A stretch of 64,000 bases of DNA, taken from positions 6,156-70,155 of IMG/VR virus record IMGVR_UViG_3300047409_000171. One strand, written 5' to 3'. The translations under genes were made by a program, and so were the position numbers. Positions 619 through 60,623 of the stretch are shown in pieces; the stretch's first letter is position 1; each line of letters starts with the position of its first letter. The notes beneath the pieces are model-generated. The model searched no databases. It saw only the letters and a list, made by a program, of their open reading frames with translations, and was not told the origin of the DNA. This DNA comes from a virus.

Positions 619-924
619 ATGCGGATATTTCAGCATTCACAAGGCTATCTGGTAGCGTTTGGCTTTGACATGGTTAGCCGGAAGCCAATGCCGCGCCGTA
701 TTTGTTGGAGCGACCCAAGCGGCGATTGGGACATGAGAACCGACAATCATGCTGGTTGGTGTGATTTGTCGTTCACCGTCAATCCGGAATTCATCCGCGA
801 GAATGCTGGTCGGATAGTTGCCTACCAGCCCGGGAAATGCGTCGAGATGACGCTGGTTGACGGCCCATTCATCTGGAATTTCACGACGCTGCAAAGCGAC
901 ACCACTCTCGCAGCTGTCGCATAG
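619..924 (+). CDS. Small protein resembling a fragment of the nozzle/stabilisation protein (30825-32882)
   Basis: LVAFG...PRRICWSD...TDNHAG aligns with LFAWG...PMMIRWSD...TTNQAG. Confidence 0.7.
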   Translation: MRIFQHSQGYLVAFGFDMVSRKPMPRRICWSDPSGDWDMRTDNHAGWCDLSFTVNPEFIRENAGRIVAYQPGKCVEMTLVDGPFIWNFTTLQSDTTLAAVA

Positions 925-936
925 GGGGGTAACATC

Positions 937-1923
937 ATGGCTGACGAGGCAGAACTCGAAATCAAGATCATCCCGGATGAGGAAGCAAACGTCGAAGCCG
1001 CGCAGGCGGCGGACGAGAAGGTTACGAAAAAGGCCGAAATCACAACTGAGGTCAAAGACCCTGCAATGCAGGAACTCATGGCCCAGTACAAAGACCTTGA
1101 GGGCCGGGAGGCTGAGAAGGATCGCCGCCTTGCGGAAGCGGAGCGGGAGAAAGAACGCCTCCGCGTCGAGGCCGAAGGTGCGAAGAAGCAAGTTGCCAAC
1201 AGCCATCTCGACACCGTCACCACGGCGCTGAATTCGGCCAAGTCGGATGCGGAGCAGGCCAAGCGGGACATCCGGGTCGCCAAGGACGCTGGCGATATCG
1301 ATGCCGAGATCGAGGCGCAGGACCGGCTGGCACAGGCGAGGGCCGACGAGCGGCGGCTCGACGAGGCCAGAAGCGACCTTGAGGCGCGTGCCAAGGCCCC
1401 GCCGAAGCGTCAGGCGCCGCCCACCGATCCAGTGGAGGCTTACGTGCAAGGCCGCACAGCGCCGACGGCTAGCTGGCTGAGGGCCCATCCGGAGTTCATC
1501 ACGGATACGCGCAAGCAGGCCAAACTTACCGCAGCGCACTATGATGCGGAGGGGGACGGGTTGGTCGCGGACACGCCGGCGTATTTTGCCCATGTTGAGA
1601 AATTTCTGGGGATAGGTGGGGAGGCGGTTACCAAGGCCGCCCCGACTGAGGCCGCGCAAGTCGAGCCGGCCAAACAACGAAAGGGGGCACCGGTGGCACC
1701 AGGGAGCGCGGTATCGAATAACGGAGCCGGCAGCGGCGCTACGCCGGTCATGCTGACCCGAGGGGAGGCCGCCGCGGCACAGGACGGTACCCACGTATGG
1801 AACTACGATGATCCGAAAGGCAAGTTCAAGAAAAACGACCCGATCGGCATTCAGGAGTTTGCCCGCCGCAAGGTCGCGATGCAAAAGCAGGGCCTGTACG
1901 ATAAATCGTACTCGGAAGTGTGA
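937..1923 (+). CDS. Putative capsid scaffolding protein
   Basis: Acidic N-terminus, long coiled coil, basic C-terminal helix, position in head module. Confidence 0.65.
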   Translation: MADEAELEIKIIPDEEANVEAAQAADEKVTKKAEITTEVKDPAMQELMAQYKDLEGREAEKDRRLAEAEREKERLRVEAEGAKKQVANSHLDTVTTALNSAKSDAEQAKRDIRVAKDAGDIDAEIEAQDRLAQARADERRLDEARSDLEARAKAPPKRQAPPTDPVEAYVQGRTAPTASWLRAHPEFITDTRKQAKLTAAHYDAEGDGLVADTPAYFAHVEKFLGIGGEAVTKAAPTEAAQVEPAKQRKGAPVAPGSAVSNNGAGSGATPVMLTRGEAAAAQDGTHVWNYDDPKGKFKKNDPIGIQEFARRKVAMQKQGLYDKSYSEV

Positions 1924-2501
1924 TCATGGCTAAACCTCTAGTCCATCTGGACCCCTACGAAATCCCGGCGCACCTGATCCCGCCGGGGATTATCTATCAG
2001 TGGGTAGCCAAGAAGTCCGGCAGCCGGATTGATCCTCAGTATCAGGCTATGGTTGAGGCCGGATGGGGCGAAGTGCCATACCAGCGGCTTGAGGACCACT
2101 ATCGCGGGCGTTATCGCGGCGAAGGGACTGAAATTCAGATCGGCGGCGAAGTTCTTATGGAACGGGCCAAAGAGATGTCGGTGGTGGCGCGTGACAAGGA
2201 AATTGACAAGGCGCTAGTAAATGCAGGTACAGGGCGTACTGCGTCGGTCAATCTTGTGCAGCATGTGAGATTGTCGGCATCGGAGCTCAACACGGCGGCA
2301 TCCATCAAGCTAAGTAGCCCGGAATACGTCGCGCGCAGGATGAAGATGATCGCAGAAGGTGCGGATGACTCACTCATTCGCGGCTGGAAAGGCTCGTTCA
2401 TGTTTATCCGGCCGCCGACAAAGCGAGTGGTGCGGCATCGTTGGCTTGGCTGGCTGTTCAATTTGATCTCCAAGGAAACAACGGAGCATTTCGATGACTG
2501 A
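1920..2501 (+). CDS. Paralogue of 2494-3192 fused to an RHH-like C-terminal domain
   Basis: IPPG..YQW...GW..VP...GEVLMER shared with 2494-3192 and 7815-8513. Confidence 0.7.
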   Translation: MIMAKPLVHLDPYEIPAHLIPPGIIYQWVAKKSGSRIDPQYQAMVEAGWGEVPYQRLEDHYRGRYRGEGTEIQIGGEVLMERAKEMSVVARDKEIDKALVNAGTGRTASVNLVQHVRLSASELNTAASIKLSSPEYVARRMKMIAEGADDSLIRGWKGSFMFIRPPTKRVVRHRWLGWLFNLISKETTEHFDD

Positions 2502-3192
2502 AGAAATCCAGAAGGTAGACCGCCGCACGCGCGAGTACCGCCAGCAGAAGGCAGCGCAGGCGGCTCCGCCCGTCCCCCCGGCTGATGTCCGGATGGATAT
2601 TGACGGCGGCGAACCCGCCCCTGCGGCATCGCCCACCCGCACACAGACCCGCGTATCGGCCCGGACCACGCCGGATGGTCGCTTGGAGGTCACCGGCCGC
2701 AACGGCGAGGTGCTGTCGCGCACCCGGACGTATGTTGGCGACATCTTCGAGATACCGAAAGAACTGATGGAGCCAGGTTGGAGCCTTCAGTGGAACGCCG
2801 TGAGCATCGCGGGCAATTCTGACATCATCCTCGACCAGAATCACATGATGCACCAGAACGGCTGGCGGCCCGTGCCGGCCGAGCGGTTTGCCGGCAAGCT
2901 GGTGCCGAAGGGCTCGACCGGGCCGATCATCCGTGGGCAGCAGATGCTGATGGAACGTCCGCAGTCGATGACGGATGAGGCAAATCGAGAGGATCAGAAA
3001 AACGCGCGAGAGCTCATATCGGCGCGTAATGAATCCTTGAAACTTACCAAGGTAAGGGATCAGTTGCCCGACGGCATGGAAATGGCTGGCAAATACATAG
3101 GCACGGGCGGCGGGATGCGCCTCTCGATAGACAAGAGCCTTGACGTTCTTGCCGTTAATCGGGAAGCTGGAAACTACAAACTGGATGAATAA
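2494..3192 (+). CDS. Conserved head-module protein
   Basis: PGWSLQW...NGWRPVP...MLMERP; follows the scaffold gene. Confidence 0.7.
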   Translation: MTEEIQKVDRRTREYRQQKAAQAAPPVPPADVRMDIDGGEPAPAASPTRTQTRVSARTTPDGRLEVTGRNGEVLSRTRTYVGDIFEIPKELMEPGWSLQWNAVSIAGNSDIILDQNHMMHQNGWRPVPAERFAGKLVPKGSTGPIIRGQQMLMERPQSMTDEANREDQKNARELISARNESLKLTKVRDQLPDGMEMAGKYIGTGGGMRLSIDKSLDVLAVNREAGNYKLDE

Positions 3193-3252
3193 GGCGAGGC
3201 CCGTCTGCGTAAACAGGCGGACCTCTAACCACAACCGAATGAGGGTTCGGAA

Positions 3253-3939
3253 ATGGCTACCGATAAAGTTATATCCCGAAAGGATGCGATGCAAAGGGGG
3301 CTTCGCCTGTACTTCACTGGCAAGCCATGCAAGCGAGGCCATGTCGCACATAGGGACGTTCCTGGTCGCGGGTGTGTGGTTTGCTCAGCGGAGCGAGCGG
3401 CATCTGACGCCGCAAAGAAAAGAAGCAAAGAATACAACTCCCGACCAGATATTAAAGAGGCAAGAAAGCGGTACAACAAGAAGTACCATGCTGAGCGAGT
3501 TTGGACGGAAGAACATCGCGTTAAAGCATTGGCAGCGACCAATAAATGGCGAAAAAACAATTTAGAAAAGGCTCGTGAGTTAGACCGCCAGTATGCGGCG
3601 AAGCGCGCGGATCAGCGTAGGGCCTACAATCGAGAGTATGCCAAGAGGAATGCAGAAAAACTCGCCACCAAAGAAAGAAATAAGCGAGCAATAAAACTTC
3701 GCAACGGCGGGCGGCATACTAAGGAAGATATAGCAGAAATCCTTCTTATGCAGCGCGGCAAGTGTGCTTATTGTCGTGTCAAACTCGGCAAAAAATATCA
3801 CGTCGACCACATCATCCCATCTGTCAAAGGTGGCAGTAATGGTCGAGAGAACCTTCAAATTCTCTGCGCCTTGTGTAACCACAAGAAACACGCGCGAGAC
3901 CCCGTTGAGTTTGCGCAGTCATTGGGATTTCTGCTATGA
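3253..3939 (+). CDS. HNH homing endonuclease
   Basis: C-terminal CAYC...HVDHIIP...GGSN..ENLQILCALCNHKK; N-terminal YFTGKPCKRGH domain. Confidence 0.9.
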   Translation: MATDKVISRKDAMQRGLRLYFTGKPCKRGHVAHRDVPGRGCVVCSAERAASDAAKKRSKEYNSRPDIKEARKRYNKKYHAERVWTEEHRVKALAATNKWRKNNLEKARELDRQYAAKRADQRRAYNREYAKRNAEKLATKERNKRAIKLRNGGRHTKEDIAEILLMQRGKCAYCRVKLGKKYHVDHIIPSVKGGSNGRENLQILCALCNHKKHARDPVEFAQSLGFLL

Positions 3940-4865
3940 GATTAGTCGTAAGTTTAGCAACGAGAGGCAGACCGGATCGCCTCGTCGACACTATAACCAA
4001 ATCGTATGCGAACTGGACCGATCCCAACACGGTGATGCAGGTTCAATTGGATGCGGATGATCCTACGCTGGATGAAGCGAAGGCAAAATTGAATGACCTC
4101 CCTTGCGTTCTGGATAATCGAGTTCTTCTCAACGTCCAAGAGCGAGAAACAACAATTGCAGCCAAGTGGAACCGGGCTCTTGACGTACCCGGCGACGTCT
4201 ACCTTGTCGCAGCCGATGACGATCCCTATTGCAGTCCGGGATACGACACCAAGATCATAGAGGCCGCCAAGCGGTTCCCTGACGGCATCGGCATGGTTTA
4301 CGGCCACCTCGCCAACCTGTCGTTCTCCGGTGCCGTAGCCCCCACCAGCAAGTTCTGCGAGCTGATGGGCGGCAAGATATTCCCCGAGTATTTCCCATAC
4401 TGGTTTGTCGACCACTGGACCGACGACGTTGCGCGAATCATTGGCCGGCTGTCGTTTGCTGCGGTCAAGACGGACCAATCGCGCCCGGGTGTGACGCAGG
4501 AGATGCGGGAGCCTGGGTGGTGGGCTACGTGGTTTGACGCGGCTTACTTGATGCGGCGCAAGCAGGCGCATGATATCATCAACAGTCCCGATTTTGTGGA
4601 CGAGTCATGGCACAAGCAGTTACTGCTGACTCACCATCCGCTGATCGAAGTCCGTTCGCGCATGATCAACCAGAACGTCCGCCAGCAGAACGCGCAGCTA
4701 TCGCAGTGGGCGGGCAATTTGAAGCCTGACGAGCGGTACAACCGGATTAAGCAGCGGGCGATTGATATGGTGCCGTCGTTGCTGAACGACTACGGGATGC
4801 CTGCGCAAGAGCAGGATATGTTCGCCCGCGCGCTGTTGGGCAAGACGCTGGAGAGGGCGGCATGA
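3936..4865 (+). CDS. Glycosyltransferase (GT-A fold, GT2-like)
   Basis: LATRGRP, QLDADD, AAKWN, YLVAADDD (DxD), FPYWFVDHW. Confidence 0.8.
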   Translation: MRLVVSLATRGRPDRLVDTITKSYANWTDPNTVMQVQLDADDPTLDEAKAKLNDLPCVLDNRVLLNVQERETTIAAKWNRALDVPGDVYLVAADDDPYCSPGYDTKIIEAAKRFPDGIGMVYGHLANLSFSGAVAPTSKFCELMGGKIFPEYFPYWFVDHWTDDVARIIGRLSFAAVKTDQSRPGVTQEMREPGWWATWFDAAYLMRRKQAHDIINSPDFVDESWHKQLLLTHHPLIEVRSRMINQNVRQQNAQLSQWAGNLKPDERYNRIKQRAIDMVPSLLNDYGMPAQEQDMFARALLGKTLERAA

Positions 4866-5305
4866 GGAAAGAGCTTCCAACCAAGCTAGAAGACGGCCGC
4901 GTTACTTACGGCCCACTAGCCAGCCGCAAATCAGATGGCGCGTATGGTGGGTTTTTTGTTCAAGGACCATGCGGCGCAAGACTCAAAATCATTGCAAGCG
5001 GCGGCGATCCTGATGATATCGAATCTCAGGGTTGGGAGCATGTTTCAGTCTCGACCGAGAGACGGCCGCCGAACTGGCAGGAAATGTGTTTCGTTAAAGA
5101 CCTATTTTGGTCTGAGGATGAGTGCGCTATCCAATATCATCCACCCAAATCAGAATACGTGAACAATCATCCTTACTGCCTGCATTTGTGGAGCAGGAGA
5201 GACGGAACGATTCCTATGCCGCCATCGATCCTAGTTGGCGTAAAAAGCCGTGGAGTTCTTTCTGAGGCGGAAGCCAAATATTTGCGCCAGCAAATGGGAC
5301 TATGA
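4862..5305 (+). CDS. Conserved phage hypothetical protein
   Basis: GWEHVSVS...PNWQEMCFVKDLFW...YVNNHPYCLHLW motif seen in many phages. Confidence 0.75.
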   Translation: MRKELPTKLEDGRVTYGPLASRKSDGAYGGFFVQGPCGARLKIIASGGDPDDIESQGWEHVSVSTERRPPNWQEMCFVKDLFWSEDECAIQYHPPKSEYVNNHPYCLHLWSRRDGTIPMPPSILVGVKSRGVLSEAEAKYLRQQMGL

Positions 5306-6717
5306 TGGACGCGGTTACAGCAGCGGCAGTGCAGGTCCAATGGGATGGAAAGCCAAAAACCATTGTGCTGTGCCATGGGTGCTGGGACTTGTGCCACCTC
5401 GGGCACATCCGCCATTTGCAGGAAGCCAAAGCGCTTGGCGGGGCGAATGCCTACCTGATCGTATCGGTCACGGCGGACAAGTGGGTCAACAAGGGCGTAG
5501 GCCGTCCGCACTTCAGCCATGAGCAGCGGGCGGAAGCATTGCGAGCTCTGGAGTGCGTGGACGAGGTGTTTATCAATCACGACGAGGGATGCTGGGAACT
5601 AATCCGCAAGATCAAGCCCGCGTTCTACGTCAAGGGTGTGGACTACGTCGGGGTATCGACTGAGGGCTTGGAGAAAGAGCGGCAGGCCATAGTTGAGGTC
5701 GGCGGCGAACTCCGGTTCACGCATTCAAGGAAGTGGTCATCCTCGCAGTTGCTCAACACGGAGCGGTTCTCCGACGAGATTTGCGCCTACCTGGAGACGA
5801 TGAAGGCTGCGGACGCCAAGGGCCGGATATTTGAGGCCTTCGATAAGGCGGACAAGAAGCAAATCCTGTTCGTTGGCGAGCAGATCGAGGATGTGTATCG
5901 GTACGTCCAAGGGCTCGGCCGAGCGTCGAAGGAGTTGATGCTGGCGACGGTCGAGACCGGCCACGAGACGTTCTCTGGCGGAATTACAGCGTCCCAACTA
6001 CATGGCGAGTGGCGCAACACCAACGTCGTGACGGGCTCATATCCAATCACCAAGACGCGCTACGTCGATTCGGACTTCAACAAGAAGCTGTTTGATGTCT
6101 ATTCGGCGCGCGAGATCAGCATGACGGCATGGGAGAGGGCCGAGTTTAGGGACCGCTTGACGGATGCTATTGGCCTCCATGACGTTGTGATCGTGAACGA
6201 TTTCGGCCACGGTTTGATCGGGGATATTGAGCGGAACGCCTTGCAGAACACGGGGTTTTTGGCGGTGAACTGCCAGACCAACGCTGGCAATTACGGGTTC
6301 AATCTCATCACCAAGTACCCGAAAGCGCACTATGTCTGCATTGACGACCCAGAGGCGCGGCTGGCGGCCGGGATGCAGCGGGAGCCCATCTCGAGCGTGG
6401 CGTTCTCGCTATCGCAGCGGATGGCCTGCAAGCGGTTCCTGATCACCCATGGCCGGTACGGGTCGGACTGGTTCCACCAGAACTCGTCATTCCAGGTTGG
6501 CCGCGCGCCAGCGCTGGCTCAAGGCGGGGTGGATACGATGGGCGCGGGGGATGCAGTGATGGCCGTTACCGCGCCATTGGTCGCCGCGGGGCTCGACATG
6601 CAGTCCGTGGCGCTGGTTGGCAACATCGTGGGGGCGATCAAAGTGTCAATCCTTGGCCACCGTCGGCACGTTGGGCGGCAGGAGATTATTCAGACGGTGG
6701 AGGCCCTACTCGCATGA
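5302..6717 (+). CDS. Bifunctional nucleotidyltransferase / PfkB sugar kinase (HldE/RfaE-like, domains in reversed order)
   Basis: N-terminal HGCWDLCHLGH (HxGH) and YVKG.DY; C-terminal DFGHG and DTMGAGDA PfkB signature. Confidence 0.9.
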   Translation: MMDAVTAAAVQVQWDGKPKTIVLCHGCWDLCHLGHIRHLQEAKALGGANAYLIVSVTADKWVNKGVGRPHFSHEQRAEALRALECVDEVFINHDEGCWELIRKIKPAFYVKGVDYVGVSTEGLEKERQAIVEVGGELRFTHSRKWSSSQLLNTERFSDEICAYLETMKAADAKGRIFEAFDKADKKQILFVGEQIEDVYRYVQGLGRASKELMLATVETGHETFSGGITASQLHGEWRNTNVVTGSYPITKTRYVDSDFNKKLFDVYSAREISMTAWERAEFRDRLTDAIGLHDVVIVNDFGHGLIGDIERNALQNTGFLAVNCQTNAGNYGFNLITKYPKAHYVCIDDPEARLAAGMQREPISSVAFSLSQRMACKRFLITHGRYGSDWFHQNSSFQVGRAPALAQGGVDTMGAGDAVMAVTAPLVAAGLDMQSVALVGNIVGAIKVSILGHRRHVGRQEIIQTVEALLA

Positions 6718-6905
6718 CAGATTTGACGGAAGAATCTCTATCGGAACTGATGAAAGCTATTCGTGCCGAGTGGGTGATTAAGCCCATTCAATTGGTAGTC
6801 ACGCAAGAAGGTATAGCGCGGATGCGCGCACTCTGCGCTGACGACCCAGAATTTAAGAAGCGAGTAATCGCAGAATTTCCGCAGGTGGAGGCGTTGCTGG
6901 CATGA
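6714..6905 (+). CDS. 63-aa protein resembling a fragment of the major capsid protein
   Basis: DLTEESLSELMKAIRAEWV..QLVV vs capsid SLNESTLLANMTNVRTQFV..RLVV; ATGA coupling at both ends. Confidence 0.65.
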   Translation: MTDLTEESLSELMKAIRAEWVIKPIQLVVTQEGIARMRALCADDPEFKKRVIAEFPQVEALLA

Positions 6906-7252
6906 GCCTATCATCCGCCTATTCAGGCATGAGTGCGGTCGCGAGCGAGTTTCAGGTGGCCATAGATTCGATTAAGGATAGGGCTCCGGAGCGTTTCGTG
7001 GATGCCGTCATCTGGCAAGACTTCGTCCATGATAGGGTGTCCATCCGGACAGAATTCGTATTAGTAACGCGGCGCGACATGGATGATGCGCGTAATTCTC
7101 GGCATCTAAATTCGCTAGTCGCCGCCCGTGTACTCAAGGCTATCGGCATCTCCGATGACCCATCTCAACAGGCAAAGCGTCTCCGTACGGAGCGCAGGCA
7201 GTTGCTGGCGAGGGGCAAGGAAGCGGCATCACGGAAGGCGCGACTGGCATGA
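6902..7252 (+). CDS. Hypothetical protein (weak capsid-like motifs)
   Basis: ATGA-coupled ORF; WQDFVHD and VTRRDMDD. Confidence 0.6.
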   Translation: MSLSSAYSGMSAVASEFQVAIDSIKDRAPERFVDAVIWQDFVHDRVSIRTEFVLVTRRDMDDARNSRHLNSLVAARVLKAIGISDDPSQQAKRLRTERRQLLARGKEAASRKARLA

Positions 7253-7818
7253 ATGCGAGGTTCAAATTGGCGGAAATATCATGCCGCTACGAGGCTCTGA
7301 CCAATGGCTTGGCCGATATCCGCTCCGAGCCCAACGCCTACCAGACCGTAATCGACATGATCACCCACATGGGCAACGGCAAGGCGCGGCTGTTCTTCGT
7401 GGGCAACGGTGGGTCGGCGGCGGTCGCTTCGCATTGCGCAATTGACTACATGAAGGCAGGCGGGTTCGCCACGTTCGGACCTGGGGACGCTGCGCAGATG
7501 ACGTGCATCGGGAATGATCTCGGGTTCCATAACGTGTACTCGCTGCCGATTGAACGGCATGGGCAATTGGGCGACGTGCTGTTTGCTATTTCTAGTTCAG
7601 GGATGAGCGAGGACATTCTAGACGCGGTGGCGACTGCTAGGCGCAAGATGATGAACGTAGTCACCCTCAGTGGTTTCGGAGAGGGCAATTTCCTTCGCAA
7701 GAAGGGGCAGGTTAACTTCTACGTGCCGTCGAATCGGTATGGCGTCGTGGAAATAGCGCATCTGGCCATCCTGCATTCGATACTGGACGAAGTGGTTGAA
7801 TTGGAGAGGCAAAAATGA
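7249..7818 (+). CDS. gmhA: SIS-domain phosphosugar isomerase (GmhA-like)
   Basis: GNGGSAAVASH, TCIGND, GDVLFAISSSG.S, YGVVEIAH. Confidence 0.9.
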   Translation: MNARFKLAEISCRYEALTNGLADIRSEPNAYQTVIDMITHMGNGKARLFFVGNGGSAAVASHCAIDYMKAGGFATFGPGDAAQMTCIGNDLGFHNVYSLPIERHGQLGDVLFAISSSGMSEDILDAVATARRKMMNVVTLSGFGEGNFLRKKGQVNFYVPSNRYGVVEIAHLAILHSILDEVVELERQK

Positions 7819-8513
7819 AACGCACCAAGAAAGCCAAGCCGTTCGTCTTTAAGGCCAAGCCACTCACGCGGGCGCAGAAGGCAAAACGAACCAGAGACCG
7901 CAATGAGTTGACGAAGCGAATGCGGGCAATGGACCCCTTCTATGTCCATCCCGATACTGTTCCGGCCGGCAAGGCCTACCAATGGTTTTCGTTGGAAATA
8001 CTTGGTGCCTCAAACGAGGACGCTATTGACCGCGCCAAGGACGACGGATGGAAGGATGTTCCATTTTCTCGACATGACTTTGGCCGTAGATGCAACGCAA
8101 AGGGCAGGATTGTCGTTGATAATTCCGTTCTCATGGAGAACAGCGCCGAGATCGTGGCTGGTGCCCTAAAGAAGGACCAAGCCGCCGCGCGGCAGATGAT
8201 TGCCGACAACCCCATAGGGGCTTCAAAACAGGAGGGGCACCCTTTCCCGATTGTGAGCGAAAGTTTTGTCATATCTTCTTTCTATGAGACAGTACCGCGT
8301 GATGCCGCACCAGTGGTTGTCCCAGTGACAATATCGGTTCGGATGGATGCTGGATGGCAGGACGCTGCTGTTGGCCTTGGTCTATCCAATGAGGAATACG
8401 CGCGCCGCCGCCTGCTGATGACGATGCCAATTCTTGCTGGAGAACCAGCCGGCGACAATGATGCAGTATATGAACCTGTTACATTGCGCGTCGAGCTGGA
8501 GCGGAAGAAATGA
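7815..8513 (+). CDS. Second paralogue of 2494-3192 with RHH-like C-terminus
   Basis: VPAGKAYQW...GWKDVP...SVLME; VRMD...AA.GLGLSNEEYARRR. Confidence 0.7.
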   Translation: MKRTKKAKPFVFKAKPLTRAQKAKRTRDRNELTKRMRAMDPFYVHPDTVPAGKAYQWFSLEILGASNEDAIDRAKDDGWKDVPFSRHDFGRRCNAKGRIVVDNSVLMENSAEIVAGALKKDQAAARQMIADNPIGASKQEGHPFPIVSESFVISSFYETVPRDAAPVVVPVTISVRMDAGWQDAAVGLGLSNEEYARRRLLMTMPILAGEPAGDNDAVYEPVTLRVELERKK

Positions 8514-8698
8514 CGAAAGAGTTTCTCGTCAAAAAGAAGGATTCCAGAGAAGCCGCATTTGAGGCGGTTCAAGCTGAACTGGCGGTATATCTTTTGGGGA
8601 ACGACAATCCGTCGTGGAAATATCTGATCAAGCCGGAAGCATTGTACGGCAAGGGCGGCTGGCGGGCCTACGCTCGCATTGAATGGAATAAGAAATGA
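8510..8698 (+). CDS. Hypothetical protein
   Basis: ATGA-coupled 62-aa ORF. Confidence 0.55.
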   Translation: MTKEFLVKKKDSREAAFEAVQAELAVYLLGNDNPSWKYLIKPEALYGKGGWRAYARIEWNKK

Positions 8699-9276
8699 CT
8701 GCAGAGGAATTGCTGGCATTCGAGGCCGACATCGCCGCCGAATTCGAGGCCGCGAAGATCGCCGCGCCCGTGCACCTCGCTGGCGGGAATGAGCAGGCTT
8801 TGATTGAACTGTTCAAGGACATCAAAGACGAGGATTATATTTGCTGCGGCTGGCGTTCTCATTACCACGCGCTGCTCAAGGGAGTCCCTCCGGAAGTTCT
8901 CAAAGCCTCGATCATGGAAGGTCGGTCGATTGCCCTCTGCTTCCCATCGCATCGGATGATCAGTTCGGCCATCGTTGGCGGCATCTGCCCGATTGCGCTA
9001 GGCATCGCATGGACATTGAAGCGCCAAGGAAAGCCCGGCAAAGTGTGGGTGTTTTTGGGGGACATGACCTGTTCAACCGGGATTTTCACCGAGACCATGC
9101 GCTATGCGATGGGCCACGACTTGCCGATCCAGTTCATCATGGAGGACAACGGCATGTCGGTTTGCGCTCCGACGCGGGAGGTGTGGGGGCTGGCCGGTGC
9201 TCCGCCGCCGTTCTTTGGGTATGCGTATGAGCTTACGAGGCCGCACGTTGGAATTAACAAGTGGATTTCGTTCTGA
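8695..9276 (+). CDS. TPP-dependent enzyme, E1 alpha-like subunit (short)
   Basis: HLAGGNE, WRSHYHALLKG, SAIVGG, GD...EDN TPP-binding motif. Confidence 0.85.
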   Translation: MTAEELLAFEADIAAEFEAAKIAAPVHLAGGNEQALIELFKDIKDEDYICCGWRSHYHALLKGVPPEVLKASIMEGRSIALCFPSHRMISSAIVGGICPIALGIAWTLKRQGKPGKVWVFLGDMTCSTGIFTETMRYAMGHDLPIQFIMEDNGMSVCAPTREVWGLAGAPPPFFGYAYELTRPHVGINKWISF

Positions 9277-10259
9277 TGGGTAAGCCCCTCGCGATTGACC
9301 TTTTCTGCGGCCTCGGCGGCTGGACTGACGGCCTGTTAGCCGAAGGCTACGACGTGATCGGTTTCGACATTGAGCGGCATCAGTACGGCGAGCACCGCTA
9401 TCCCGGCTCGCTGGTCATTCAGGACGTTTGCACGTTGCACGGATCGCAGTTCAAAGATGCCACGCTGATCGTCGCCTCCCCGCCCTGCCAGGAATACAGC
9501 TACATGGCGATGCCATGGAAGCGTGCGAAAGCCAAAGCTGCAGCGATTCGGGCCGACGAAACCGGCAAGATGCTGGCGGACCTAAACCGCCTATTCGATG
9601 CCTGTTTTCGCATCCAGAAAGAGGCGAGCATCGCGGCTGGCCGGCATATCCCGTGCGTGGTTGAGAACGTGCGCGGGGCAATCCCGTGGGTTGGCCGGAG
9701 CCGTTGGAATTTCGGCAGTTTTCACCTCTGGGGCGACGTGCCGGCGCTGATGCCGATGACAGCCAAGGCGATCAAAGTACCAACAATGGGCGCGGGCTGG
9801 TATCCGCCAGGCCATCCGAAACACGTCCCCGGGTTAGGCTTCAACACGCATGCTGAGCGCAACATGCGTGAGGACATCAAGAACGTGGGCGGCTCATGGT
9901 TTGCTGTGGCGCACAACACGACAAGCGGGAAGGGGCAAAATCCGGATGGGCGTAAACTGCCCGGCTTCCGCTTCGACGGCTCTGGAAAGACTTTCCAGAG
10001 CGCGAGCGTTGCGGCGACCGGAACGAAGGTTCCGAGCGGCCTGGGTCGGCGCACCGACCCAGGCAAGGGCGCACGCTTTACCTCGCGCGACTGCGGGATA
10101 GAGGGCACCAAGAACGGAAACGACTGGTTTGGGTCCGGCGAAAACTGTTCGCTGCAACGTAAGCACGGTTCCAAGTCGGGCGGTCGCAAGATGGCATCCG
10201 CCCTGATCGCCAAGATTCCGCTCCCTCTCAGCCGGCATATCGCGGTGACCTTCCGATGA
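9276..10259 (+). CDS. C5 cytosine DNA methyltransferase-like protein with C-terminal repeats
   Basis: DLFCGLGG (motif I), SPPCQ (IV), VENV (VI); start placed at the TGATG overlap. Confidence 0.8.
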   Translation: MGKPLAIDLFCGLGGWTDGLLAEGYDVIGFDIERHQYGEHRYPGSLVIQDVCTLHGSQFKDATLIVASPPCQEYSYMAMPWKRAKAKAAAIRADETGKMLADLNRLFDACFRIQKEASIAAGRHIPCVVENVRGAIPWVGRSRWNFGSFHLWGDVPALMPMTAKAIKVPTMGAGWYPPGHPKHVPGLGFNTHAERNMREDIKNVGGSWFAVAHNTTSGKGQNPDGRKLPGFRFDGSGKTFQSASVAATGTKVPSGLGRRTDPGKGARFTSRDCGIEGTKNGNDWFGSGENCSLQRKHGSKSGGRKMASALIAKIPLPLSRHIAVTFR

Positions 10260-10792
10260 CATACCATGACGAACTTGCCATAGCGATGAACCTTCTCGCC
10301 GATGACGAGAGGACAATCTTCCTTGGTCAGGGAGTCGCATGTGGCGGTACCTCAATGGCGTCGACGCTTAAAGATATTCCGATGGCGAAGCGCATTGAAA
10401 TGCCGGTCGCCGAAGAAATGCAGACAGGCATGGCGGTTGGGATGTCACTGCGGGGGCTGATCCCCATATCGATCATACCACGCTGGAACTTCATGCTTCG
10501 CGCCGCCGATGCCATCGTCAATCACCTCGACCGCCTATCGCTATATTCGGACTACCGCCCCAAGGTCATCATCCGCACCGCCGTCCCCAGCAAGTCCCCG
10601 TTCAATCCGGGCCCCCAGCACGACGACGACTTCACCGGCGCATTCCGTGCTATGCTGCGCACAACCGACGTCGTCTGCCTGCAGTCCGAGGAAGATATCG
10701 TCCCGCAGTACCAGAAGGCGCTGCACTCGCCGCGGAGTACAATCATTGTGGAATTCACTGATTTTTACCGGAATGCGAGGGGCAATGGCTGA
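10256..10792 (+). CDS. TPP-dependent enzyme, E1 beta/transketolase pyrimidine-binding subunit (short)
   Basis: IFLGQGV, IEMPVAEEMQTGMAVG, PRWNF, GPQH. Confidence 0.85.
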   Translation: MTYHDELAIAMNLLADDERTIFLGQGVACGGTSMASTLKDIPMAKRIEMPVAEEMQTGMAVGMSLRGLIPISIIPRWNFMLRAADAIVNHLDRLSLYSDYRPKVIIRTAVPSKSPFNPGPQHDDDFTGAFRAMLRTTDVVCLQSEEDIVPQYQKALHSPRSTIIVEFTDFYRNARGNG

Positions 10793-10997
10793 GAGCAAGA
10801 ACAACACGGCGCTTCATGTTACGGTCCATTTTGGAAGCGGCGTGCCGTTCGATGTGCAGGGCGTCGCATTATTGGATTTCGAGAGGAAGCTACGTACATT
10901 GATGGGAGGGGCTATCGTCGAGGTTTTCAAGGAAGCCAAGGATGACGATAGCAAGCTTCGATCAATGATGACGCCGGCTCAAAGGAACAAGCTATGA
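10785..10997 (+). CDS. Small hypothetical protein in sugar cluster
   Basis: GAGGGG RBS, MAESK start, coupled to the radical SAM gene. Confidence 0.6.
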   Translation: MAESKNNTALHVTVHFGSGVPFDVQGVALLDFERKLRTLMGGAIVEVFKEAKDDDSKLRSMMTPAQRNKL

Positions 10998-12160
10998 CAA
11001 CGCCCATGCCAGAGTTCGTTGATTCTATCGTTGGAGGATCGCACGATCTACAACTCGATGGGACCAAAATTGGCTGGTACAAGGAGCGCGTGTTGGCCTA
11101 CATGCGCGGCGAAAAGATTGCACCGATTACGATGGACGTCGCCCTTACTCGCCGCTGTCAGAGTGCCTGCAGATTCTGTTATGCATCGCTTCAATCTTCG
11201 GATGGAGGTGGAGAGATTACCAAGCAGCAAGCATTCGAGTTTTTTGAGGATGCTGCCGAGATTGGAGTTCGAGGAATTTCACTGATCAGCGATGGTGAGA
11301 GCACCAACGTTCCGTATTACGTTGAGGCAATCGAATACGCGGCGTCGCTCGGCCTTCAACTCGGGATTTCATCCAACGGCATATTGCTGACGCCAAATGT
11401 TCTCGAAAAGATCATGCCGTCGCTATCGTACCTTCGTTTCAATTTCTCCGGCGGTGAGCGCAAGCGCTACGCTGAGATTATGGGAATGAAGCAAGTGTGG
11501 TTCGACAAAATACAGGACCACATCAGGGCGGCGATGGAGATCAAGCGGCGCGATAAACTAGCGACCAACGTGAATATTCAGTTCGTTGTGGCCCCTGTGG
11601 ATGCGGATCAAATCTTGCCATTTGCTAGGCTGGCGAAGAAGATTGGGAACTCTGTTCCGGACAACGGCGGTTTTTACGGAATCATGAAACATTGTGCTGA
11701 TAGCGCGGACAACGCTCTCGGCGTTGACTACAAACAATACAGCGACTTGTTTCCTCTATTCGAGGAGGCGGAAGCAATGAGCGATGAGAATTGCAAGATC
11801 GTTGTGAAGTGGAGTCGCATTCAAGACGAAGGCAAGCGTCACTACACTCGCTGCATGGGACCGCCTTTTATTTTGCAGATGAGCGGGTCCGGGCTCATCG
11901 CTCCGTGCGGACAGAAATTCAACAACAAATACGCCAAATTTCACATCGGCCATATCCAGACTCAGCGCTTCCGAGACATCTTCAAGAGCGACCGCTACTG
12001 GGATGTTCTTGGCTATCTTAGTGGCGGCATGTTCCGCCCGGACCTAGAATGTGGCGAAAATTGTTTGCAGCAAAATAGCAACCAATGGTTGTCAGACTAT
12101 GTTGATGGCAAGGTTGATTTTCCGTCGTCTCCTCCTCCTCCTCACTTAGGATTTCTATAA
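10994..12160 (+). CDS. Radical SAM enzyme with SPASM-like C-terminus
   Basis: CQSACRFC (CxxxCxxC), DGE motif; C-terminal C...G.IAPC...IG...C..NC. Confidence 0.9.
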   Translation: MTTPMPEFVDSIVGGSHDLQLDGTKIGWYKERVLAYMRGEKIAPITMDVALTRRCQSACRFCYASLQSSDGGGEITKQQAFEFFEDAAEIGVRGISLISDGESTNVPYYVEAIEYAASLGLQLGISSNGILLTPNVLEKIMPSLSYLRFNFSGGERKRYAEIMGMKQVWFDKIQDHIRAAMEIKRRDKLATNVNIQFVVAPVDADQILPFARLAKKIGNSVPDNGGFYGIMKHCADSADNALGVDYKQYSDLFPLFEEAEAMSDENCKIVVKWSRIQDEGKRHYTRCMGPPFILQMSGSGLIAPCGQKFNNKYAKFHIGHIQTQRFRDIFKSDRYWDVLGYLSGGMFRPDLECGENCLQQNSNQWLSDYVDGKVDFPSSPPPPHLGFL

Positions 12161-12161
12161 C

Positions 12162-12797
12162 ATGAGCGGACCAAAAGGCCCATGGGATAAAACTTGCTAT
12201 CAATGCAAGGAAACAAAACCAACAGACCAATTCGCAAAACGCAGCAGCAAGTCCCTGCGTCTGTACCGCAATATCTGCACCGACTGCTGGAACGCTTATT
12301 ATCGTAAATTGAGAGACACCGATGAGCGTCGTGCTAAGGACGCTGCCAAAATGAGGGAGTGGCGCGGTAACCCAGAGAATAAAGAGAAAGAAAGAAAAAG
12401 GCGCCATGCCGCCAATGCGGCTAGCCCTGCCACTGTTTTTAGAATGGCGATTCACAACGCCAGAATGAGAGCTCCCATTGAGATTACACGAGATGACTTG
12501 TGGAGGTTATGGGAAGCGCAACATGGCAAGTGTGCATTAACTGGCATTGCTATGACGTGGGCAAAAGGCAAAATTCAACCTACGTCCATTTCTCTGGATC
12601 GTATTGATTCATCGCTCAATTATACTGTCGACAATGTTCGCTTCATTTGTCATGCGGTTAATGCCTTCAAGGGCGTTGGTAGTGATGATGAAATGCTCGT
12701 CATGGCCCGCGCCATCGTCGCGAAGGCCGACGAATCCGAACCTTCATGGCGCGGCTTCGGCTACAGCGCCAACGACCATATCCTGATGGTGCATTGA
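12162..12797 (+). CDS. HNH-like homing endonuclease
   Basis: N-terminal CxxC...CxxC; GKCALTG, SLDRIDS..YTVDNVRFIC.AVN..K. Confidence 0.8.
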   Translation: MSGPKGPWDKTCYQCKETKPTDQFAKRSSKSLRLYRNICTDCWNAYYRKLRDTDERRAKDAAKMREWRGNPENKEKERKRRHAANAASPATVFRMAIHNARMRAPIEITRDDLWRLWEAQHGKCALTGIAMTWAKGKIQPTSISLDRIDSSLNYTVDNVRFICHAVNAFKGVGSDDEMLVMARAIVAKADESEPSWRGFGYSANDHILMVH

Positions 12798-13472
12798 ATG
12801 GCCCTCACCCAATCCTCCCCCAAATTCTGGGCACCAAACCAGCGCGTTCTGGACTATCTGACCAACGAAGTCATCGCCAAGGACGCCAAGGTTCTGGACG
12901 TCGGGCCCGGGCATGCGCCATTCAAGCGGGCGAACGTATCAGTTGATTTTGTCGACGTGCCTGGCGTTGCCAATCTGGTGAAGTGCGATCTGGCGAATGA
13001 ACCGCTGCCGTTTGCAGATAAGGAGTTCGATTTCGTCTACGCGCGGCATATCCTCGAGGATATGTTCAACCCGTTCCCGCTGATTAAGGAAATGCAGCGC
13101 GTTGGCAAAGCTGGGTATATTGAATGCCCGTCGCCGATTGCTGAGTTAGGTCGCGGCGTTGATGGCGGCTCTCCGCCGTTCCGCGGATTTCACCACCATC
13201 GATACATCACATGGATGTTCGGCAAGGAACTGCGGCTGATCTCGAAATACCCGTTCGTCGAGTACCTGAAGTTTGACGATGCGGCGATCGACAAGATGCT
13301 GGCGCAGGACCGCTACTGGAATACTTATTGCTGTTGGGAGGGGGAGATTACATTCGCGCACCGACAGTCTCCATTGAATTTTGACATTCCTCGCGACTAC
13401 GCGCTGATCCTGAATGAGGCGATGGAGCGGTCGAAGGAAGCGACGGACATTTTCTTCTCCAACATCAAGTGA
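12798..13472 (+). CDS. Class I SAM-dependent methyltransferase
   Basis: VLDVGPG, LPFADKEFDFVYARHILED. Confidence 0.9.
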   Translation: MALTQSSPKFWAPNQRVLDYLTNEVIAKDAKVLDVGPGHAPFKRANVSVDFVDVPGVANLVKCDLANEPLPFADKEFDFVYARHILEDMFNPFPLIKEMQRVGKAGYIECPSPIAELGRGVDGGSPPFRGFHHHRYITWMFGKELRLISKYPFVEYLKFDDAAIDKMLAQDRYWNTYCCWEGEITFAHRQSPLNFDIPRDYALILNEAMERSKEATDIFFSNIK

Positions 13473-13476
13473 CGCC

Positions 13477-13662
13477 GTGGACGAATACGTCAAAGCCAAT
13501 AATTACGGTGCATGGGCCATTGGCCAGCCGCTTAAAAATGGACGATTCCAAGTGCGTCGGGTAGTATGGGGAACCATAATGGCGCGGTCCGAAAAGCGCG
13601 AAGGCGAACAAATCCGTCGCGCCGAAATCAACGTCAGAAAGCCGATAAAGCAATCCAAATGA
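13477..13662 (+). CDS. Hypothetical protein (start uncertain)
   Basis: Fills the gap; stop overlaps the next ATG. Confidence 0.45.
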   Translation: MDEYVKANNYGAWAIGQPLKNGRFQVRRVVWGTIMARSEKREGEQIRRAEINVRKPIKQSK

Positions 13663-14174
13663 AGCCACGCGAAGCATCACTCAGCCACGAAACCCTAACG
13701 CGGGTGCTGGACTACGATCCAGCAACCGGGGTTTTCGTGTGGAAAGAGCGCACGTCAAATCGGGTCAAGGTAGGTGCGGCGGCTGGCAACGTAACTCCCT
13801 TCGGATACATGTCGATCCAATTATTGGGATGGGCCTACCTCGCGCACCGCCTGGCATGGTTTTACGTTCATGGTGTCTGGCCTAAAGAGGAAGTAGACCA
13901 TCGTGATGGTGATGGGATTAACAACAAACTCTCGAATTTGAGAGAGGCTAACAGCTCACAGAATAAAATGAACCGAAGGCCACGGCCAGAGACCAAGGTT
14001 GGTCTTAAGGGAGTTTATCTCCACAAAGAAAATCCGCCTCAGTATAGGGCTCGGATTAAGTCGGCCGATGGGAAAGTGCATCACTTGGGTTTGTTCCCAA
14101 CGGCTGAAGAAGCTCACGCTGCATACGCTGCGGCATCACATAAGTATCATGGCGAATATGGGAGAAGTACTTGA
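13659..14174 (+). CDS. HNH endonuclease with AP2-like C-terminal domain
   Basis: YDPATGVFVW, AHRLAW, VDHRDGD..NN..SNLREA..SQN, HLG.F.TAEEA. Confidence 0.9.
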   Translation: MKPREASLSHETLTRVLDYDPATGVFVWKERTSNRVKVGAAAGNVTPFGYMSIQLLGWAYLAHRLAWFYVHGVWPKEEVDHRDGDGINNKLSNLREANSSQNKMNRRPRPETKVGLKGVYLHKENPPQYRARIKSADGKVHHLGLFPTAEEAHAAYAAASHKYHGEYGRST

Positions 14175-56512: not shown

Positions 56513-56681
56513 CCCTCATTCTCCCCCTCTGGCTACTTCTCTATCCGATTTTCTACCTCGTCGGATTCTGGAAGCCTGAACTGCTTCATCATGTTCAGGC
56601 GGACATCAGGATTTTGGGGAGGGGTGTTTTGATTTCTCAAACGCAGCTTTCACGCGCGGCAGAATAACACAGGAGAGATAG

Positions 56682-57339: not shown

Positions 57340-57418
57340 GCGTTGGTAAAGCTGCTGCAGTGATTGGCGTCGTTCTTATTATCGCTGCGTGCGCCTTCTC
57401 TTTTCCGAGGATGTGAGC

Positions 57419-57637: not shown

Positions 57638-58212
57638 GCATGGACAGGGAAGAAATGCCGGCAAAGATTGATGATCTCATTGTGCTGGCTGAAAACATCA
57701 TCGCCTTCGGCAGGAACATTACCTATCCATCGCGGGCTTCTTCTCGGTACGTTCGTAGCGTTATGACTGATTTAGTTGCCACTATCCGTGTTCTCCGCAC
57801 CCCCGCGCAACAGGAGGCATCTGGCGGCCCTTGGCGCTTGAATATCGGCCAACAAGGCTCCGGTCCTTGGGACAGAACAACCATTGAGACCAGCAACGGC
57901 GATATTGTTGTCGTTGTTGCTGTAGTCGATGCAGAAAACTCTGTTGCAGCGGCAAGCGCGCGGTTGCTTGTTGAAAGAGCCAATGCGGCCTCCTCTCCCG
58001 TAGTGGGAGAGCGGGAAGGGATCATTGAGGCGGTAACGGCGCTAGCACAACGCAACCACCCAATGACGCTGAGCCAAGTCATCGCCACTATTCGCTCCCT
58101 CCCCCTCCCCCCAGAGAAGGCACCAGCACCGGGCAGCGTGAGCGTGATGCCGACTTTGTGGCTGCCGCACTGTCCTCCACTGATAGCAAGGGCGCGGCGT
58201 GAATGTCCTTGA
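57634..58212 (+). CDS. Hypothetical protein
   Basis: AGGAGG RBS. Confidence 0.55.
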   Translation: MSMDREEMPAKIDDLIVLAENIIAFGRNITYPSRASSRYVRSVMTDLVATIRVLRTPAQQEASGGPWRLNIGQQGSGPWDRTTIETSNGDIVVVVAVVDAENSVAAASARLLVERANAASSPVVGEREGIIEAVTALAQRNHPMTLSQVIATIRSLPLPPEKAPAPGSVSVMPTLWLPHCPPLIARARRECP

Positions 58213-58984
58213 CCTCTTCTCAGGAATTGGCGGCTTCAGCCTCGGGCTCGAACGGGCCGGAATGCGAACCGTTGCCTTCTGCGAGATCGAGCCATATCAG
58301 CGATCTGTTCTCGCCCGACATTGGCCCGGCATCCCAATCTACGACGACGTGCGGACACTCACAGCCGATCGACTTGCCGCGGACGGAGTTTCCGTGGATG
58401 CCATCTGCGGGGGCTTCCCCTGCCAAGACCTTTCAGCAGTCGGAGCCCGTGCCGGGATTGAAGGATTCAAGAGCGGCCTTTGGCGTGAATACCACCGACT
58501 TATTCGCGAACTACGACCCCGCGTCGTCGTCGTGGAAAACGTCACAGGCTTGCTTGATCGAGGGATGGGCAGAGTTCTCGGAGACCTGGCCATCATCGGG
58601 TACGATGCGGAATGGTCGGTGCTTTCATGCTGCCGACTGGGTGCCTCACACGCACGAGAGCGCGTGCTCATTGTGGCATACCCCAACGAACAACGAGAAG
58701 AAGCCAGCTGGCCAGAAGGAGATGGAAATGGTCCGTCTCCACGATCTCGGCCATTCCGTCCCGAATACGTACATCAGGCTACGGTCACAGTTGGCCGCGC
58801 GTACCGGGAAGCGCTTGCCAGCCAATCCGGACTGGCTGGAGTCGCAGATGGGGTACCCGATCGGATTCAGCGCAACGGGTCGCTCGGAAACTCCGTCTCG
58901 CCACCCGTCATCGAAACCGTTGGACGCGCGATCATGAGGGCTCTTTCCATCTCTTCGCAGCACCAAACCAATGAGGCGGGCTGA
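58199..58984 (+). CDS. dcm: C5 cytosine DNA methyltransferase (alpha-like chain)
   Basis: LDLFSGIGG, GGFPCQD, VENV, H.RER, LGNSV. Confidence 0.9.
   Translation: MNVLDLFSGIGGFSLGLERAGMRTVAFCEIEPYQRSVLARHWPGIPIYDDVRTLTADRLAADGVSVDAICGGFPCQDLSAVGARAGIEGFKSGLWREYHRLIRELRPRVVVVENVTGLLDRGMGRVLGDLAIIGYDAEWSVLSCCRLGASHARERVLIVAYPNEQREEASWPEGDGNGPSPRSRPFRPEYVHQATVTVGRAYREALASQSGLAGVADGVPDRIQRNGSLGNSVSPPVIETVGRAIMRALSISSQHQTNEAG
58203..58937 (+). CDS. Overlapping alternative-frame ORF, probable methyltransferase beta-like chain
   Basis: 244 open codons; WHTPT and ANPDWLESQMGYPIGFS (motif IX-like). Confidence 0.55.
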   Translation: MSLTSSQELAASASGSNGPECEPLPSARSSHISDLFSPDIGPASQSTTTCGHSQPIDLPRTEFPWMPSAGASPAKTFQQSEPVPGLKDSRAAFGVNTTDLFANYDPASSSWKTSQACLIEGWAEFSETWPSSGTMRNGRCFHAADWVPHTHESACSLWHTPTNNEKKPAGQKEMEMVRLHDLGHSVPNTYIRLRSQLAARTGKRLPANPDWLESQMGYPIGFSATGRSETPSRHPSSKPLDARS

Positions 58985-59040
58985 CGCATGGCAGAACACG
59001 CAGTAATTCCGAGAGAAGACTCCGCGCTGCGCGCCGTCGC

Positions 59041-59298: not shown

Positions 59299-59309
59299 GG
59301 CGAAGTGAC

Positions 59310-59735
59310 ATGAGCCGATCTGGATATTCTGACGACTGGCCCGAAGACAATTCTGGGTGGCTCTATCGAGGCGCCGTCTTATCGGCACTCAAGGGGAAAC
59401 GCGGTCAAGCCTTCCTGAAGGAGATGCTGGCCGCACTCGACGCCATGCCCGTCAAGGAATTGATCGCTGGCGATCTTCAAGACGGCGATAAGGTTTGCGC
59501 CATCGGCGCTGTCGGCCGCGCCCGCGGCATCGACATGACAAACCTTGACCCCGAGGACTCCAGCACCGTAGCCGCCAAGTTCGGCATCGCATCCGCGATG
59601 GCGCGCGAACTGGTTTTCGAAAACGACGACGACCTGGGGTTCAGGACCGAGACGCCGGCACAGCGTTTCGAGCGGATGCGTAGGTGGGTCGCGGACGAGA
59701 TCACTCCCGATGTTGTGGGAACAGGGAAGGACTGA
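59310..59735 (+). CDS. Conserved phage hypothetical protein
   Basis: MSRSGYSDD, G.RGQAFL.E...ALDAMP.KELI, VCAIG. Confidence 0.75.
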   Translation: MSRSGYSDDWPEDNSGWLYRGAVLSALKGKRGQAFLKEMLAALDAMPVKELIAGDLQDGDKVCAIGAVGRARGIDMTNLDPEDSSTVAAKFGIASAMARELVFENDDDLGFRTETPAQRFERMRRWVADEITPDVVGTGKD

Positions 59736-59863
59736 GGCAATGAAGCGCAACCCATATAGTCCGCGGGAGAACGTCTTTTGGTTCGTTCTCGGAGCCTGCA
59801 CGATGGCAGCGGTTGGCGCTGCGAGCCTGTTCGTGCTGCGCATATATCAACAATGAGGCAAAA

Positions 59864-60142
59864 ATGACACGCATTATTTCTGACAAGTCGCTGCATCGGC
59901 CTGGCTACATCAGCGAGCCGGTGCCCGGCGGCGGTTTCATCGAATACCCCGCCGGCATCAAGCCGCACATCAACTGGAAGCACATCGACGGCCCACTGCT
60001 CTACACGTCCGATTGCGGGCTGGAATGGCTTTCGCTGTGGGACCGATTCCGGTTCGCCCTTGGCTTCACCGACATCCACGGCCTTGACCGCAAGTACCGT
60101 CGCGATGTTGTCGGAACACCGACCATCACCAAACCCACTTGA
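59864..60142 (+). CDS. Hypothetical protein
   Basis: GAGG RBS. Confidence 0.55.
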   Translation: MTRIISDKSLHRPGYISEPVPGGGFIEYPAGIKPHINWKHIDGPLLYTSDCGLEWLSLWDRFRFALGFTDIHGLDRKYRRDVVGTPTITKPT

Positions 60143-60192
60143 CCATAACCACATCTCAGGACGATATTTCAACAAGCTAAAGGACAGTGATC

Positions 60193-60435
60193 ATGCAGGA
60201 TATTTTGACAGAAAAAGAAGCTAACTTGCGGCGTTGCCCGTATAGTTTTGGGCCGCCGTTCACGTCAAGCGGTGCAAAAATATCTGGTTCTTCAGGGATA
60301 ACCGAGGCTGTCCAGACATCTCCAACCAATTGCATCGCATCGGAATGTATGGCTTGGCGCTTAGCCCATAAAGATAGCGCCCAAGGCGAGGAACGGGGAT
60401 ACTGTGGCGCATTCGGTCTACCGAGGTTCACATGA
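60193..60435 (+). CDS. Conserved Cys-containing phage protein
   Basis: TE.EA...CP, CIAS.CMAWR, GYCG. Confidence 0.7.
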   Translation: MQDILTEKEANLRRCPYSFGPPFTSSGAKISGSSGITEAVQTSPTNCIASECMAWRLAHKDSAQGEERGYCGAFGLPRFT

Positions 60436-60623
60436 TAGATAAAAAATACACGGTAATCGGATATGATGCCTACGGTCAGACCGTATCGGAGGAAATATCT
60501 GTCCCGAGCAAGTCATGGAAGCAGACCGTCCGTGTCGCATTGGTTGCTATCCTCGGCCATGGCCTGTCCTATCGAATAGGCCTCACCAAATTCCGCAAGA
60601 TCAGCGGCATAAAAATCGGCTAA
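60432..60623 (+). CDS. 63-aa protein resembling a fragment of virion protein 22525-23802
   Basis: YTVIGYDAYGQTVSEEIS vs VTVTGYDIFNNRMTEYLS. Confidence 0.6.
   Translation: MIDKKYTVIGYDAYGQTVSEEISVPSKSWKQTVRVALVAILGHGLSYRIGLTKFRKISGIKIG

Follow-up and report, generated by a model that had tools for sequence, protein, structure and literature searches.

Phages commonly duplicate genes and capture domains. Satellite proteins such as P4 Sid, SaPI CpmB and PLE TcaP redirect helper capsid assembly, and phages encode counter-defence sponges or mimics such as Ocr and Tad1/Tad2, the known examples of which mimic DNA or bind nucleotides. The tail nozzle of phage Pa223 is described as being formed by gp59, a six-bladed interrupted propeller (bioRxiv 10.1101/2025.06.11.659172), and a second preprint presents Avs13 as a STAND family that senses tail nozzles by direct binding (bioRxiv 10.64898/2026.01.04.697583). 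Here we analyse the 64,000-nucleotide window that makes up bases 6156-70155 of IMG/VR virus record IMGVR_UViG_3300047409_000171, a 70,155-bp record rated complete. A first-pass annotation had singled out five non-core genes in this window, at 619-924, 1920-2501 (here A), 6714-6905, 7815-8513 (here C) and 60432-60623, as diverged miniature copies of the phage's own virion proteins, and had proposed that together they form a decoy or interference system. The similarity to virion proteins stands for four of the five, namely A, C, 619-924 and 60432-60623, and fails for 6714-6905, which had been matched to the major capsid protein. Sequence comparison favours, with a probability of about 0.6, a reading in which the set comprises three accessory genes or gene pairs that are unrelated to one another; each would be made from a module of a virion or head-assembly protein, and they would differ in age and form no coordinated system.

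All five open reading frames (ORFs) are intact and each has a Shine-Dalgarno-like GGAG or GAGG 5-12 bases upstream. Their operon-like packing is also as described, with overlaps of 4 or 8 bases at 1920, 2494, 6714/6902, 7815/8510 and 60432; 619-924 is flanked by gaps of 7-12 bases and overlaps neither neighbour. In an all-vs-all blastp over 102 ORF products, accompanied by Smith-Waterman alignment against 300 shuffles for the claimed pairs, the trio formed by A, C and the head-module gene B (2494-3192) was alone significant among the claimed pairs. When shallow profiles of 44 of the 48 small ORFs were compared with 14 virion proteins, the smallest P values in the 616 comparisons were 0.00093 and 0.0023, about the level of chance. 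On the strength of the pairwise and shallow-profile results the three pairs outside the trio were read as chance, a reading that deeper family alignments overturned for 619-924 and 60432-60623: in 466 small-ORF comparisons with deep virion profiles, the 60432-60623 pair scored 35.4, the 619-924 pair 33.7, and the next best 24.8.

The product of 619-924 is probably related to the blades of the tail nozzle (30825-32882) at about residues 342-434, as both profile comparison and a structural model suggest. Pairwise Smith-Waterman alignment of the two proteins gave z 3.2, at a different site (nozzle residues 530-556). Aligned by hhalign to 89 nozzle sequences, residues 6-93 of 619-924 fall on nozzle residues 342-434 over 78 columns (score 33.7, P 3.1e-4), a score that none of 493 column shuffles reached (highest 27.9); with 10 nozzle sequences the profile P was 0.0023, and the register was unchanged across alignments. 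The AlphaFold2 (AF2) model, built from a seven-sequence alignment with a mean predicted local distance difference test score (pLDDT) of 80, arranges its eight strands as two sheets of four. Of the 48,161 PDB representatives searched with VIA, the one that matches it best is the Pa223 tail hub 9nwi_Y (Z 10.2), on which 99 residues align to chain residues 145-282 with a root-mean-square deviation of 5.1 and 21% identity; the tail hubs of SU10, GP4, phicrAss001, LME-1 and A4 score Z 7.3-8.0, interspersed with generic WD40 propellers, and the top BFVD matches are phage proteins of 500-900 residues (TMq 0.67-0.76). The nozzle profile itself (alignment A5, 19 sequences) matches 9nwi_Y at E 2.3e-10, positions 347-534 lying on chain residues 152-341, and the 'nozzle gp16' chains 8zkk_O and 8zkm_E at about 6e-10. 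The coordinates of these three mappings match, and 619-924, the nozzle and 9nwi_Y therefore agree on register. When a hidden Markov model (HMM) of 619-924 was run against 7,588 ORFs of 10 genomes, the best non-self matches were the nozzle orthologues of genomes G008, G009 and G012, all weak (E 0.3-2.5). With the deep profile, the shuffles and the fold in agreement, we grade the claimed nozzle similarity as probably real. Homologues of 619-924 number five, of 99-103 residues and 50-75% identity, together with a copy in a 68,998-bp IMG/VR contig (L086), where it directly follows the portal gene; the gene is absent from all 16 related records searched.

The gene at 60432-60623 belongs with a different parent, the family of 22525-23802, which we infer from its position to encode a virion protein and which has no match in Pfam, PHROG or the PDB; its orthologues occur in 31 of 80 capsid-centred loci. 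Pairwise Smith-Waterman alignment of the two proteins gave z 2.7 over 17 residues. Against a 36-sequence alignment of the family, residues 6-52 align with residues 273-329 over 47 columns (score 35.4, P 2.3e-5), and none of 507 shuffles reached that score (highest 24.3); against a separate 27-sequence alignment (A6) hhalign returned a probability of 85% and P 6.3e-6 in the register found before. The matched region is the conserved TVxGYDxYGxPMxE...KAFKYI motif of the family, and with these P values and shuffles the homology is graded real. The idea that the gene derives from this phage's own protein is not borne out. Identity is about 35% to the phage's own copy as against 65%, over 23 residues, to the orthologues in loci L061 and L045, the best single match, and the capsid proteins of L061 and L045 are about 61% identical to that of the window. 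Since 60432-60623 is closest to the versions of distant relatives, capture by recombination, not local copying, is its probable origin. Over the same 23 codons the nucleotide identity in the L061 comparison is 41/69 (59%). The gene found only itself among 5.8 billion clusters and was detected neither in an IMG/VR pattern scan nor in 16 related records, and its sole trace is a weak 23-residue match inside the corresponding large gene of G016. Other frames hold no further pieces.

The kinship of A and C with B is confirmed (blastp E 2.4e-6 to 1.9e-5; Smith-Waterman z 9.9-13.2; 0/300 shuffles reaching the score). All three proteins contain the family core motif D..P.G..QW...GW..VP..R...LME, and the family HMM picks them up at E 8.6e-51 or better. 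The description of the genes as miniatures does not fit A and C, since A, B and C are full-length paralogues of 193, 232 and 232 residues. A profile search yielded 41 proteins, 10 of A-type, 22 of B-type and 9 of C-type. In a maximum-likelihood tree a core clade, with B and all single copies, is separated at a support of 97/95 from a tailed clade, with the A-type and C-type proteins and four proteins of unknown phages; A and C are therefore not mini-copies of this phage's B. The idea that they are recent copies of B is contradicted by this topology, which places them as full-length members of an old sister subfamily.

Single-copy, syntenic orthologues of B follow the scaffold-like gene and precede the decoration-like and capsid genes in G002, G003 and G008-G012. 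A family member sits at the same position in MW202675 (E 1.9e-35), and gp38 of HTVC023P is a weak member (E 1e-6). Copy number is three in G000, G001 and G004 and one in seven other genomes. The order of scaffold-like gene, family member, then decoration-like and capsid genes holds for B and the single copies, and C sits elsewhere. In G012 the single family copy lies on the minus strand in a 329-residue stop-to-stop frame (G012:C1:36523-37509) that overlaps the end of the scaffold-like match, possibly a fusion of scaffold-like and family proteins or merely an open upstream frame. The family is large: a scan of 1.84 billion representatives returned 1,566 clusters (50% identity) at E <=0.001 and 758 at <=1e-10. 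It has no entry in Pfam or PHROG, with 0 of 46 members matched in PHROGs and two unrelated Pfam families matched by 1 of 46 each. Neither a PDB sequence search nor Foldseek against the PDB (E <=0.001) found a solved relative, a wide VIA structure search reached at best Z 4.0, BFVD gave uncharacterised proteins only, and a tblastn search with B found nothing in 50,697 phage records. Structure searches with the C model were dominated by residues 33-122; TcaP (8g1r_E) scored Z 3.4 against that model, which is not a meaningful match.

Beyond the shared core, the sequence pattern of the A and C tails consists of a strand, a helix, a G-x-S/LS turn and a helix with E-Y-x-R-R. In the AF2 model of C (mean pLDDT 78) the tail elements are a strand at 167-170 and helices at 179-187 and 192-202. 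By sequence pattern and model the tail looks like a putative ribbon-helix-helix domain; ribbon-helix-helix domains are DNA-binding domains of the CopG/Arc/MetJ type.

Nothing supports a link between 6714-6905 and the capsid protein (21545-22459). The pairwise z is -0.1, and the profile P values, 0.014 and, against 79 capsid sequences, 0.0074, over 19 columns, are at chance level and within the spread of other small ORFs; 6714-6905 comes ninth among 44 small ORFs when shallow profiles are used and fifth among 144 comparisons with deep ones, with no gap to the rest. Its assignment as an HK97-fold capsid fragment was rejected, the similarity not being significant. The only homologue is G004:C1:11376-11555 (55% identity), in one of the 16 related records. 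That homologue lies directly upstream of an extra B-family copy, and in the window 6714-6905 lies 900 bases upstream of C.

Are these genes maintained, and do they belong together? The view that they are maintained genes rather than fresh debris is borne out for A, C and 619-924, each of which has its own orthologues at 45-79% identity. The proportions of non-synonymous and synonymous differences (pN/pS) were taken from one DNA relative at 57-69% protein identity, where synonymous sites are saturated and only the inequality is informative; they are 0.28/0.83 for 619-924, 0.28/0.75 for A, 0.24/0.65 for B and 0.26/0.72 for the scaffold-like gene, which points to purifying selection on 619-924. 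Accessory genes shift position between relatives, as seen for the 619-924 homologue in L086 and for the C-type copies, which precede or follow the GroES-like gene in G004 and G001. The description as non-core is accurate for 619-924 (0/16 related records), 6714-6905 (1/16) and 60432-60623; B itself is core. A and C, 619-924, 60432-60623 and 6714-6905 did not co-occur in the relatives searched, and HMMs of the nozzle, the 22525-23802 family and the capsid, run at the sensitivity of HMMER against ORFs of at least 50 residues in nine related genomes, brought up no additional small fragments. Since the genes differ in age and distribution and do not co-occur, neither a system nor a panel is supported.

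We favour repeated exaptation of interaction modules of the virion and head assembly into accessory late genes. B is a core head-module gene of HTVC023P-like podophages, and A and C would represent the old sister subfamily that kept the alpha/beta core and added a ribbon-helix-helix-like tail, through which they may also bind DNA. The 619-924 protein would be two nozzle-type propeller blades kept as a free-standing protein, and 60432-60623 would hold a stretch of about 46 residues from the post-capsid protein's conserved domain. Each would retain part of its parent's interaction surface and bind the parent's partners during particle assembly. All these genes lie on the same strand, closely packed within the late packaging and structural run, as the portal, small terminase (TerS) and large terminase (TerL) calls indicate. 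Several results count against this explanation. The nozzle signal of 619-924 depends on the alignment, P being 0.023 with the 19-sequence A5, and generic WD40 propellers score Z 7-9 against its model. The ribbon-helix-helix call combines a sequence pattern with a moderately confident model (10-residue block means of 53-90 over residues 151-200), and a Pfam search of the two tails with E up to 10 returned no model. For 60432-60623, 65% amino acid identity against 59% nucleotide identity hints at conservation, yet this concerns 23 codons only, and selection is not measurable without homologues.

Could part of the set simply be inert? We think it unlikely that 60432-60623 is a neutral relic of illegitimate recombination that is open by chance; this reading also leaves 6714-6905 unconnected with the capsid protein. 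The absence of any homologue of 60432-60623 from the clusters, pattern scans and related records would fit, as would a similarity limited to 46 residues with no pieces in other frames, and the capsid match of 6714-6905 is at chance level. However, 60432-60623 shares an ATGA with the end of the gene before it and is preceded, at 6 bases, by a GAGG, its motif holds its amino acid identity despite the lower nucleotide identity, and 619-924, A and C are clearly under constraint. It is rather improbable that 619-924, and perhaps 60432-60623, A and C, are immune decoys that show a nozzle or head surface and soak up or block host sensors. Counter-defence genes are often sporadic among relatives, as 619-924 is, and 619-924 lies in the same late gene run as its parent nozzle. 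The premise that host sensors read virion proteins holds, and now includes the tail nozzle: a nozzle-sensing Avs13 is described (bioRxiv 10.64898/2026.01.04.697583), and 619-924 is nozzle-like. But the same source has Avs sensors wrapping the whole core fold through extended interfaces (bioRxiv 10.64898/2026.01.04.697583), of which a two-blade piece is a small part. In addition, the subfamily of A and C is old and widespread, unlike a gene with fast turnover, and the literature searches made here turned up no description of a phage-encoded structural-protein decoy.

Interference between phages, in which the fragments would be dominant-negative subunits that poison co-infecting relatives as these assemble their tails or heads but are tolerated by the diverged proteins of the phage itself, strikes us as very unlikely. 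Satellites do redirect helper assembly with capsid- or scaffold-like proteins, and the 60432-60623 motif is nearer to distant relatives than to the phage's own version. Nevertheless, 619-924 aligns best to the nozzle consensus of its own clade, and, if the fragments are expressed late, the phage's own assembly would suffer just as much in the absence of some specificity. We are similarly doubtful, about as much as for immune decoys, that 619-924 is a maintained nozzle-surface mimic that blunts Avs13-type immunity or poisons competitors' tails, with 60432-60623, A and C as further mimics; if true, they would make up a kind of counter-defence or competition gene that did not turn up in the literature searches made here. 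Because bacteria sense the tail nozzle directly, as the Avs13 preprint describes (bioRxiv 10.64898/2026.01.04.697583), the nozzle fragment offers a cheap, concrete test of whether phage mimics answer protein-sensing immunity.

The record end interrupts the large-terminase ORF, which resumes at the first bases of the record and comes to 508 residues when joined; the record is therefore a circular permutation without terminal repeat. By sequence the phage is an HTVC023P-like podophage. Its capsid protein is 32-39% identical to those of cultured relatives including Pelagibacter phage HTVC023P, Roseobacter phages CRP-901/902 and Caulobacter phage RW; a closer capsid relative, at 61% identity, is an uncultured phage, and at least 596 of at least 600 IMG/VR stretches matching a capsid pattern encode a relative. 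The late run reads TerS, endonuclease, TerL, portal, GroES-like gene, 619-924, scaffold-like gene, A and B, then an HNH endonuclease and a sugar-nucleotide/glycosyltransferase block holding 6714-6905 and C, then the decoration-like gene, the capsid gene and 22525-23802, followed by adaptor, nozzle and ejection proteins (Table 1). The scaffold-like gene, kept in 9/9 related genomes, stands upstream of A and B; its product has no family match in Pfam or PHROG and no PDB sequence match, and the decoration-like protein likewise has no PDB sequence match.

Table 1. Coordinates of the features discussed, in window positions unless stated otherwise
Feature	Position	Strand	Basis or remark
Two-blade beta-propeller protein, 101 aa	619-924	+	AF2 model, VIA, hhalign
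Scaffold-like coiled-coil protein, 328 aa, core	937-1923	+	E/K/A/R-rich; sequence read by eye
A, paralogue, 193 aa (191 aa from ATG at 1926), tailed subfamily	1920-2501	+	blastp, shuffles, tree
B, core family member, 232 aa, directly after scaffold-like gene	2494-3192	+	synteny
Small gene, 63 aa, no supported capsid link	6714-6905	+	
C, paralogue, 232 aa, tailed subfamily, inside sugar-gene block	7815-8513	+	blastp, shuffles, AF2, tree
Decoration-like gene	20288-20890		
Major capsid protein	21545-22459	+	phrog_371 6.6e-8; Pfam Mu-like_gpT 4.5e-6
Protein just after capsid gene, 425 aa, parent family of 60432-60623	22525-23802	+	
Adaptor	26899-27594		
Tail nozzle/hub, 685 aa, parent family of 619-924	30825-32882	+	phrog_3287 1.7e-47; PDB profile match
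ORFan, 63 aa, directly upstream of TerS gene	60432-60623	+	hhalign to 22525-23802 family
TerS (small terminase)	60630-61136		phrog_51
TerL (large terminase)	62627-64000, on into record bases 1-153		phrog_38
Portal	within 6 kb preceding window		
Core gene, 160 aa	late run, between portal and 619-924		counterparts in MW202675 and HTVC023P annotated GroES

The sugar-nucleotide/transferase block (3936-14950) forms an insertion that separates B from the decoration and capsid genes. Among its genes are one that is glycosyltransferase-like, one that encodes a cytidylyltransferase-PfkB fusion (5302-6717) and one that is radical-SAM-like (10994-12160); G001-G003 have the block, and G008-G012 lack it. 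An N-terminal domain (phrog_1081; blastp E 1.8e-4) is common to two HNH/endonuclease VII genes, one (3253-3939) just after B and the other (24210-24773) just downstream of 22525-23802. An endonuclease-like gene (61447-61854; phrog_16880, 8.7e-12) lies between the TerS and TerL genes, and two DNA-methyltransferase-like genes (9261-10259 and 58199-58984) have about 77 N-terminal residues in common (E 2e-4; phrog_363). A 555-residue gene after the ejection-protein genes (37458-39125) matches phrog_21712, 'major head protein' (1.5e-19), though the capsid gene is elsewhere, and this is probably a misleading name for it.

An unusual feature of this phage is the persistence of short particle-protein pieces as genes of their own in the late operon, namely the nozzle fragment, with seven known members, and the 46-residue post-capsid motif. 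The B family, for its part, is a very large uncharacterised head-module family with two ancient subfamilies, and it has neither a solved structure nor a Pfam or PHROGs entry. The genes share with Ocr and Tad1/Tad2 that they encode small accessory proteins, sporadic among relatives; those proteins bind host immune components or signals, and a virion-protein fragment used as a sponge or mimic was not found described in literature searches. With P4 Sid, SaPI CpmB and PLE TcaP the likeness is the idea of a protein resembling or fitting virion parts that alters the assembly of another virus, but those proteins are satellite-encoded with shown phenotypes, whereas the genes described here lie in a complete phage. 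The A and C tails resemble ribbon-helix-helix domains in their beta-alpha-alpha pattern and AF2 secondary structure; unlike those domains, the putative tail is fused to a head-module domain and has no Pfam match at E up to 10. The closest comparison is with the Pa223 nozzle gp59 (9nwi chain Y) and the nozzle gp16 of 8zkk/8zkm, which the profile of the window's own nozzle matches, the four-stranded blades of the 619-924 model superposing on 9nwi_Y. Compared with such a nozzle, 619-924 has two blades only, in 101 residues, with no closed six-blade propeller and no adaptor-binding insertion domain, and its gene lies in the head module, about 30 kb away from that of the nozzle. The modelled protein is probably a derivative of a nozzle and is not itself one.

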